A DNA stretch of 64,000 bases from Haplodiscus bocki (lineage: Eukaryota), in contig OZ296650.1 in assembly GCA_965655095.1 (NCBI GenBank), forward strand, positions 78,988,001-79,052,000, read 5' to 3'. Positions within the stretch are counted from its first letter, which is position 1; each line of letters opens with the position of its first letter. This document shows positions 51,698-52,366 of this stretch, in pieces. Made by a program: the position numbers and the translations under genes. A model generated the notes under the pieces. That model saw nothing but the letters and a program-made list of their open reading frames with translations. It was not told the origin of the DNA and made no database searches.

Positions 51698-52366
51698 ATG
51701 TGCAGCTACAATAAAACCCAAGTCTCTCCTGATGATCTTAGAAAGCTTGCAATTCATTCTACTTTGCGCTCAGAAGGTGATCTTATATCAAATTGTGGCC
51801 GGAATTTCAAAAAGACTGTTTCTTTCGATGACATTGTGCACTTCATTGATGAGGAAGACATCGTAACCTATGAAGATTTTGCATGTGGTATTACTTTCTA
51901 CCAGGAAACTCCTAAAGAAATCAGAGAGATCAACAGAGAACGGATTTACATTTCCAGATCCTGTGAAAAAACCAAGTGCGTTCCCATTAACGATTGGCAT
52001 AACTGTTTTATTGATGAGCAGCATAACTCTAATATCTTTTTGAACCCGTACAATTTATGGGACATGGTTCCAGCAGCTCTTATGTCACTCAATCACACTA
52101 ATGATAGATACTCTATGTCCAATCAGTACCCTCAACCAACAACTCACCAACCTAGAACAGACTCATATCCGGTGTTCTCTTCCTTGCGAAGGATGGACAG
52201 TCAAAGGAAGGGATTGCGCGTCAGCTTTGCATTCTTTCAACGAAATTACCCACCAGACGGACGAGTGAACGAAACAGTTGCTACGGTTGAAGAGTTGAGT
52301 GATCTCTGGAAACCCGGAGTGATGGATGGAATTCCACCGTTTGTGATGAACTGTAATTGTTGTTAA
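51698..52366 (+). CDS. Intact 222-aa orphan protein with two putative PP1-docking (SILK-like + RVxF) modules
   Basis: Longest intact ATG-initiated ORF outside TE core genes. STLR...KKTVSFDD.V and SSLRR...LRVSF; C-terminal CNCC. Upstream TATA. Confidence 0.6.
   Translation: MCSYNKTQVSPDDLRKLAIHSTLRSEGDLISNCGRNFKKTVSFDDIVHFIDEEDIVTYEDFACGITFYQETPKEIREINRERIYISRSCEKTKCVPINDWHNCFIDEQHNSNIFLNPYNLWDMVPAALMSLNHTNDRYSMSNQYPQPTTHQPRTDSYPVFSSLRRMDSQRKGLRVSFAFFQRNYPPDGRVNETVATVEELSDLWKPGVMDGIPPFVMNCNCC

Follow-up and report, generated by a model that had tools for sequence, protein, structure and literature searches.

An ageing copy of a highly repeated, probably transposon-borne gene family with conserved SILK-like and RVxF motifs suggestive of PP1 docking

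The window, by which we mean the whole 64,000-nucleotide stretch of DNA that was analysed, has a GC content of 32–42%, is rich in decayed retroelements and reads as repeat-rich animal DNA; its Gypsy sequences presumably resemble those of acoel worms. The ORF under study and the principal retroelement remains are arranged as follows.

8–10 kb: LINE endonuclease and RT pieces, with an endonuclease piece at 8057–8788
35850–40087, minus strand: remains of BEL/Pao-like type (pieces of DUF1759, RT and RNase H)
Near 46 kb: Gypsy-type integrase region
51482–51517, plus strand: two TATAAA hexamers, at 51482 and 51512, ~180–215 bp before the ATG (consensus match only)
51698–52366, plus strand: intact ORF encoding P0001 (222 aa), a member of an unnamed protein family present in many copies
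52925–52930, plus strand: AATAAA, ~560 bp past the stop codon (consensus match only)

The description of this gene as the only long intact non-core ORF of the region is roughly right, although other frames of at least 200 aa do occur: the LINE endonuclease piece at 8057–8788, and frames over N gaps or a GAC microsatellite at 55.1–56.1 kb. The GAC/GAT microsatellite proper (55342–55830) lies between two N gaps and generates spurious long poly-D/T/R/S/V frames. An unclassified repeat of ~1.2 kb is present in three copies (24276–25461, 25813–27013 and 40074–41361), which are 70–75% identical and whose ORFs have no Pfam match. A short ORF at 11415–11693 (plus strand) gives a weak RING-finger match (E 5e-4, below the curated cut-off) and could be a host exon or a piece of an element. 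Unrelated minisatellite arrays with units of 31–33 bp (13095–13198, 27556–27728, 29852–30068, 30575–30712 and 54544–54965) are probably parts of other non-autonomous repeats. We take an ORF of 134–149 aa at 57128–57577 (minus strand) to resemble the short first ORF of another Gypsy family, and a segment at 54098–54450 (minus strand) to resemble that family's LTR; Pfam gave no support for this. Rfam and tRNA scans of the 64-kb window were empty.

The interval 51698–52366 is free of stops on the plus strand, and its translation contains the motifs that the original prediction had placed there. STLR occupies residues 21–24 of P0001 and is followed, 13 residues on, by KKTVSFDDIV (38–47); SSLRR occupies residues 161–165 and is followed, 8 residues on, by RVSF (174–177); the C-terminal residues are CNCC. 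When the protein was shuffled 20,000 times, at least one RVxF motif appeared in 30% of the shuffled proteins, at least two in 4.3%, and a loose SILK-like motif 7–55 residues ahead of an RVxF in 0.3%. The loose pattern was drawn up when STLR was already known, so these single-sequence statistics are weak. The case for the motifs is carried by their conservation across the family, not by this modest signal.

The ORF had been regarded as an orphan, which is not borne out: 1050 of 1166 candidate proteins matched P0001 at E≤0.001. The 119 best non-self matches are 74–89% identical to it, all come from ENA, and all are unnamed and without Pfam domains; 93 of these 120 close copies, P0001 included, are exactly 222 aa long. 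The word-index search of relatives covered proteins of up to 448 aa, and the search of representatives was run without a length limit. Searching the 50%-identity representatives with a profile yielded 500 matches, and most of the 150 representatives listed match only part of the profile, many of them via frameshifts. Three intact distant members (31–35% identity) used as queries yielded 36 and then 48 matches, which form roughly a dozen groups when clustered at 60% identity. In all, the family comprises more than 1000 clusters at 90% identity and several subfamilies at 21–40% identity, and no relatives were found by contig scans of prokaryotic genomes or by tblastn against phages. The ORF is one ageing copy of a highly repeated, unnamed gene. 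Some relatives lie on contigs so short that they could be transcripts (P0200, P0272, P0277 and P0206, on 740–1283 bases; P0045, P0046 and P0049, on very short contigs); if they are, expression in some species would follow. In P0304 (346 aa), most of the first conserved block and the linker is duplicated internally, giving three RVxF-type sites, and the N-terminus carries a further 39-aa repeat.

To describe conservation we aligned 17 divergent representatives, taking one or two from each group; the set excludes P0302, which is divergent, and P0303, which is frameshifted. Median pairwise identity in this alignment is 40% and the lowest is 25%. Two conserved blocks stand out, separated by a linker of 43–131 aa.

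51749–51847, plus strand: block 1 (residues 18–50), with a SILK-like motif, a fixed spacer containing invariant L, S, N and G, K-x-V-x-F and a hydrophobic patch
52178–52354, plus strand: block 2 (residues 161–219), with a second S-[SC]-hydrophobic-[RK], a second RVxF, a predicted beta-hairpin, P186/G188, W204, D210 and an [ML]NC end

In block 1, residues I19, S21, L29, S31, N32, G34, K39, V41 and F43 are invariant in all 17 representatives, and position 24 is always arginine or lysine. The representatives preserve K-x-V-x-F without exception, whereas its two x positions take 7 and 5 different residues. Fixed K, V and F with variable x positions are as expected for an RVxF motif, the consensus of which is [K/R]x(0-1)[V/I]x[F/W] (PMC6406801). 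S-[IC]-[LI]-[RK] lies 13 residues upstream of K-x-V-x-F in the representatives, and the hydrophobic patch that follows the latter may correspond to a PhiPhi motif. The SILK motif is defined as [GS]IL[RK]. Close copies mostly conform to it (SILR in 90 of 120), P0001 itself has STLR, and the SC[LI][RK] of the distant subfamilies departs from the canonical form; a literature search for an SCLK variant of SILK found nothing. Among 37 sequences scored, the first RVxF is present in 35, the SILK-like/RVxF pair with a spacing of 12–14 in 31, and the second RVxF in 26, truncated proteins being counted as misses in this last figure. In block 2, the second S-[SC]-hydrophobic-[RK] occurs in 12 of the 17 representatives, V175 and D210 in 15 each, and F177, G188 and W204 in 16 each. 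The repeated arrangement proposed for P0001 is therefore a trait of the whole family, but it is less firm for the second module than for the first. Within the linker, P-R-x-x-R-I-[KR] (residues 72–80 of P0001 and their equivalents) recurs in many subfamilies, with I78 retained in 15 of the 17; it is a candidate Arg contact or localisation signal.

AlphaFold2 returned no confident fold, with a pLDDT of 37.7 for P0001 and 54.9 for the 130-aa relative P0290; the underlying alignments were shallow (49 and 35 rows), which can also lower pLDDT. The only structure predicted in either protein is the hairpin after the second RVxF. The protein is probably largely disordered.

At 27 of its 222 sites P0001 departs from the residue most common in the family, and nine of these differences occur in at most two of the 120 close copies. 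The threonine of STLR and the last cysteine of CNCC are among the rare private changes: STLR is found in 1 of 120 copies, and CNCC is terminal in 1 of 120, where CNCI ends 73. P0001 is an ageing daughter copy whose private changes fall partly inside block 1. The suggestion of a lipid anchor at the terminal CC/CXC fails because CNCC is private to this copy. Some of the 17 representatives lack the conserved cysteine of [ML]NC, and in the others it stands third, fourth, fifth or seventh from the end; it is fourth in seven of them, and several of those with Cys at −4 have poor a2 residues. Prenylation is not a feature of the family, though it may apply to some subfamilies.

The tree of the 120 close copies is star-like, with terminal branches summing to 9.4 and internal branches to 1.4 of a total of 10.8; the terminal branch of the 51698–52366 ORF measures 0.083. 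Changes on terminal branches are spread nearly evenly, at 7.2 per column in the blocks and 8.1 outside (540 versus 1193). Changes on internal branches leading to at least four tips avoid the blocks (0.29 versus 0.93 per column, 22 versus 137; p=1.8e-6). Likewise, shared variants affect 8 of 75 columns in the blocks and 44 of 147 elsewhere (p=0.0013), whereas rare variants are even (4.0 and 4.2 per column). These tests compare proteins rather than dN/dS ratios and are not fully independent of the block definition, since the alignments that defined the blocks took in 2–4 close-family rows. The pattern they yield, in which source copies are under selection while daughters decay neutrally, is characteristic of genes carried by replicating elements, and the evident selection implies that the ORF family is functional.

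The repeat structure around the ORF bears on the nature of the carrier.

44000–47306, plus strand: decayed Gypsy-type pol and 3' region with numerous stops; it matches Integrase_H2C2 at E 1.6e-5, just below the curated cut-off
47307–48170, plus strand: G-rich purine tract (47307–47322), TG at 47329, piece A, 28-bp array (47482–47996), then 48009–48170, all in the 3'-LTR position of the decayed Gypsy-type pol
49315–50198, minus strand: left segment, an inverted relative of the right segment, 69% identical over 877 nt; may extend to TGTAAG at 49060 and inward to ~50265
51359–52857, plus strand: minimal span common to copies at other loci, as judged from read-through and frameshifted proteins such as P0201, P0132, P0133 and P0182
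52983–53904, plus strand: right segment, consisting of unique piece A, a 28-bp array (53081–53770) and an outer piece; a weak signal suggests that its inner edge may reach ~52945
54935–55141, minus strand: second, inverted copy of the 3' flank of the ORF, whose 54980–55141 is 90% identical to 52787–52948; it enters an N gap at 55142

The two segments form an inverted match (49315–50184 against 53038–53904; 69% identity, E 4e-88), each containing a 28-bp array. Piece A and the array also follow the Gypsy-type pol at the position of a 3' LTR, and the 162 bp at 48009–48170 that end this unit match 50965–51125, 570–730 bp upstream of the ORF. If the left segment does extend to TGTAAG at 49060 and to ~50265, it may run as a minus-strand LTR would. 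The purine tract and TG after the integrase region are a single instance (47307–47329), and the window holds two other G-rich tracts. In four proteins from other loci (P0220, P0264, P0144 and P0124, the array part of the last read by eye), the ORF continues, in sense orientation, into sequence of the array or of the right segment. P0138 joins ORF and array in opposite orientation, P0182 and P0248 have upstream and downstream pieces swapped, and P0237 joins a different repeat of the window. A tile search found no near-identical direct LTR pair around the ORF: the array segments are 65–69% alike, the nearest upstream one is inverted, and the locus is nested and truncated. None of the 150 representatives is fused to gag, pol or transposase.

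Several finer boundaries were also considered. A clean LTR–ORF–LTR unit with a shared LTR end and a primer site at 50575–50605, our second reading, drew no support from alignments (z about 0–1.5); for the primer-site and target-duplication candidates picked by eye near 49059 (minus strand), 50590 and 53998, alignments were at chance level. A Kolobok-type TTAA boundary (49253/53985) lacked matching ends, and a literature search for CACTA-like ends found nothing, as did one for a description of the carrier itself. Within the 3' flank, a TGTAAG-type word at 52499, like that at 49060, opens a region (52499–52860) in which units in reverse orientation resemble the 28-bp repeat (the one at 52551 found by pattern search, the rest by eye); the region is weakly alike to 47320–47500 on the minus strand (z 2.5), is present in other copies (P0133, P0182) and is possibly a short LTR-like piece. 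The N gap at 55142–55341 may hide, or have collapsed, a second copy of the cassette.

A mobile-element origin, as originally proposed, is supported by copy number, the star-like tree and the repeat context, and we hold with good confidence that the ORF family is element-borne. Association of the carrier with an LTR element is somewhat favoured over a foldback transposon. Our first reading was a foldback transposon with a TA target duplication, downgraded once piece A and the array were seen at the Gypsy 3'-LTR position. Under that reading 49315–53904 would be one foldback-type DNA transposon carrying the same PP1-docking protein, its long inverted ends bearing 28-bp transposase-binding repeats; the 877-nt inverted match is in register around a central ORF, contains internal tandem arrays and ends in TACAC...GTGTA, beyond which identity drops to shuffle level (52%), and the sense-orientation fusions are also compatible with it. 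A 4-bp CCAG direct repeat also flanks 49312–53907, but it is one of 19 candidate repeats listed, and the TA duplication is no independent sign of a foldback element because TA reads the same on both strands and will appear wherever an inverted match happens to end in TA. Arms that are only 69% identical fit poorly with a single insertion when the terminal branch of the ORF is 0.083, and no transposase was found in six frames of 50150–51700, in the 91 other ORFs of the window or fused to the 150 relatives. We consider a foldback carrier unlikely. It is less likely still that the host possesses an enlarged family of PP1 regulators, such as germline or sperm proteins, whose genes multiplied by retrocopying or segmental duplication and simply happen to lie among repeats. 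The four relatives on 740–1283-base contigs that could be transcripts, the TATA-like and AATAAA words of the cassette and the want of a linked mobility gene would suit such a family; the count of over 1000 clusters at 90% identity, the star-like tree, the even spread of private changes across conserved sites and the number of broken copies instead indicate a decaying element and not maintained genes, and the ORF is uninterrupted, with flanks common to the copies for hundreds of bases.

The function of the protein raises two further alternatives. The motifs might be incidental, the family serving the element in another way (RNA or DNA binding, or a role in a particle) or the ORF being non-functional. 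Short motifs do arise easily, as the 30% of shuffles with an RVxF illustrate, residues outside the motifs (D-[ED]-L-x-S-N-x-G and WKPG) are conserved as strongly as the motifs themselves, and ESM Atlas recognition values are low. Set against this are a pentamer in which only K, V and F are fixed, its constant spacing to the SILK-like motif, the recurrence of the arrangement in block 2 and the evidence for selection, and we regard incidental motifs as improbable. Descent from a virus, with P0001 a GADD34/ICP34.5/DP71L homologue that recruits PP1 to eIF2alpha, is the most doubtful of the readings considered. Block 2 contains W-x3-A-x-D, which we take to resemble the PPP1R15 core; in that core, a basic helix follows the W motif, and the family lacks such a helix. 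One subfamily has the word KHVRF, which is the RVxF word of short-form DP71L (PMC10807198). An ESM Atlas search with P0290 ranked a viral cluster with PF10488 (29% of its members) fifth, at 0.79, which is chance level. PF10488 itself matched none of 34 aligned members (E≤1) and none of 150 representatives (E≤0.01), the distant profile found no PDB chain at E≤10, and no viral core gene was present among the 91 window ORFs scanned. In these searches, neither viral derivation nor homology to ICP34.5 and DP71L found support.

The reading that we prefer, and consider fairly likely, is that a high-copy transposable element, most likely one linked to LTR retrotransposons, carries the ORF as an accessory gene, and that this gene would encode a largely disordered PP1 regulatory subunit. 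That the family binds PP1 is, judged from its motifs, quite probable, and an element-borne accessory protein that docks PP1 is probably what these features describe. The motifs are conserved more strongly than a single sequence could show, which strengthens the proposed role as a PP1 regulator; docking itself is what we infer from them.

The family can be compared with several known systems. PP1 adaptors have been described from viruses, and accessory ORFs from transposons. The P0001 family itself has no credible match in Pfam, PHROGs or PDB sequence searches; single weak sub-cut-off matches, such as those to Herpes_U47 and aspartokinase, were treated as noise, and the best ESM Atlas scores (0.78–0.80) are at chance level. 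With HSV ICP34.5, ASFV DP71L (PF10488, PP1c_bdg) and PPP1R15A/B it shares the character of a small non-host protein with an RVxF word, presumed to redirect PP1. It differs from them in having no detectable homology to them, in its SILK-like motifs and two RVxF modules, and in residing in a genomic repeat rather than a known virus. PP1 interactors usually combine several motifs in a disordered region (PMC6377682), and there are host interactors in which such a region couples RVxF to a SILK-type motif (PMC3410773, PMC6406801). KNL1, Rif1 and inhibitor-2 have this combination; they are host genes with other domains and no sequence match to the P0001 family, in which the motif pair is duplicated and makes up most of the conserved protein. 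Block 2 also recalls the RVxF-PhiPhi-R-W proteins (Phactr1, spinophilin, PNUTS and PPP1R15) in combining an RVxF with strands, an arginine (10 of 17) and a near-invariant tryptophan. Its spacing is different, with Arg at F+12 and Trp at F+27 compared to F+14 and F+20 in Phactr1 (PMC7599070), and the likeness is a lead rather than a match. Bdelloid LTR-retrotransposon ORF3s and plant VANC/VANB are likewise extra genes unrelated to gag, pol or transposase, lineage-restricted and possibly common to element types (PMC5408684, PMC13547354). Unlike the P0001 family, their products are env-like, esterase, exonuclease or chromatin proteins, and neither 'PP1' nor 'phosphatase' occurs in the main text of PMC13547354. 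The literature searched (listings and the beginnings of abstracts, outside subscription-only journals and outside Repbase and similar repeat libraries) contained no element-borne PP1 adaptor or element-encoded RVxF protein.

A mechanism consistent with these observations can be proposed. The carrier would be a cassette lying next to LTR sequence of Gypsy type, either non-autonomous or an extra ORF, and most likely transcribed on its own from the TATAAA words at 51482/51512 to the AATAAA at 52925, which are consensus words only. Block 1 would dock the PP1 catalytic subunit via SILK, RVxF and the hydrophobic patch. Block 2 would act as a second RVxF module whose tail (G-R, W, D and MNC) extends over the PP1 surface and alters what PP1 acts on; alternatively, block 2 might bind a second PP1. 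PP1 would thereby be retargeted or dampened to the benefit of the element: in the cells that support its replication, a host phosphorylation switch could be shifted, for instance one that arrests translation under stress or one that governs silencing. Although eIF2alpha is the target of ICP34.5 and DP71L (PMC10807198), we doubt that it is the target here.

More broadly, and with a little less than even confidence, we suggest that the family represents old, diversified retroelement-borne PP1 adaptors: an independently evolved two-module PP1 subunit, spread over more than 1000 clusters, that rewires host dephosphorylation and is convergent with ICP34.5 and DP71L yet unrelated to them in sequence. 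PP1 hijacking is documented for viruses, and a selfish element may likewise redirect a core host enzyme. If PP1 binding holds, the family would open a direct way to study how transposons of animals oppose host defence via signalling rather than via chromatin or small RNA. It would also provide an unusual PP1-binding design, with two SILK-like/RVxF modules, an S-C-L-R variant and a new W/D/MNC tail, together with more than 1000 natural variants in which selected and neutral changes can be told apart.
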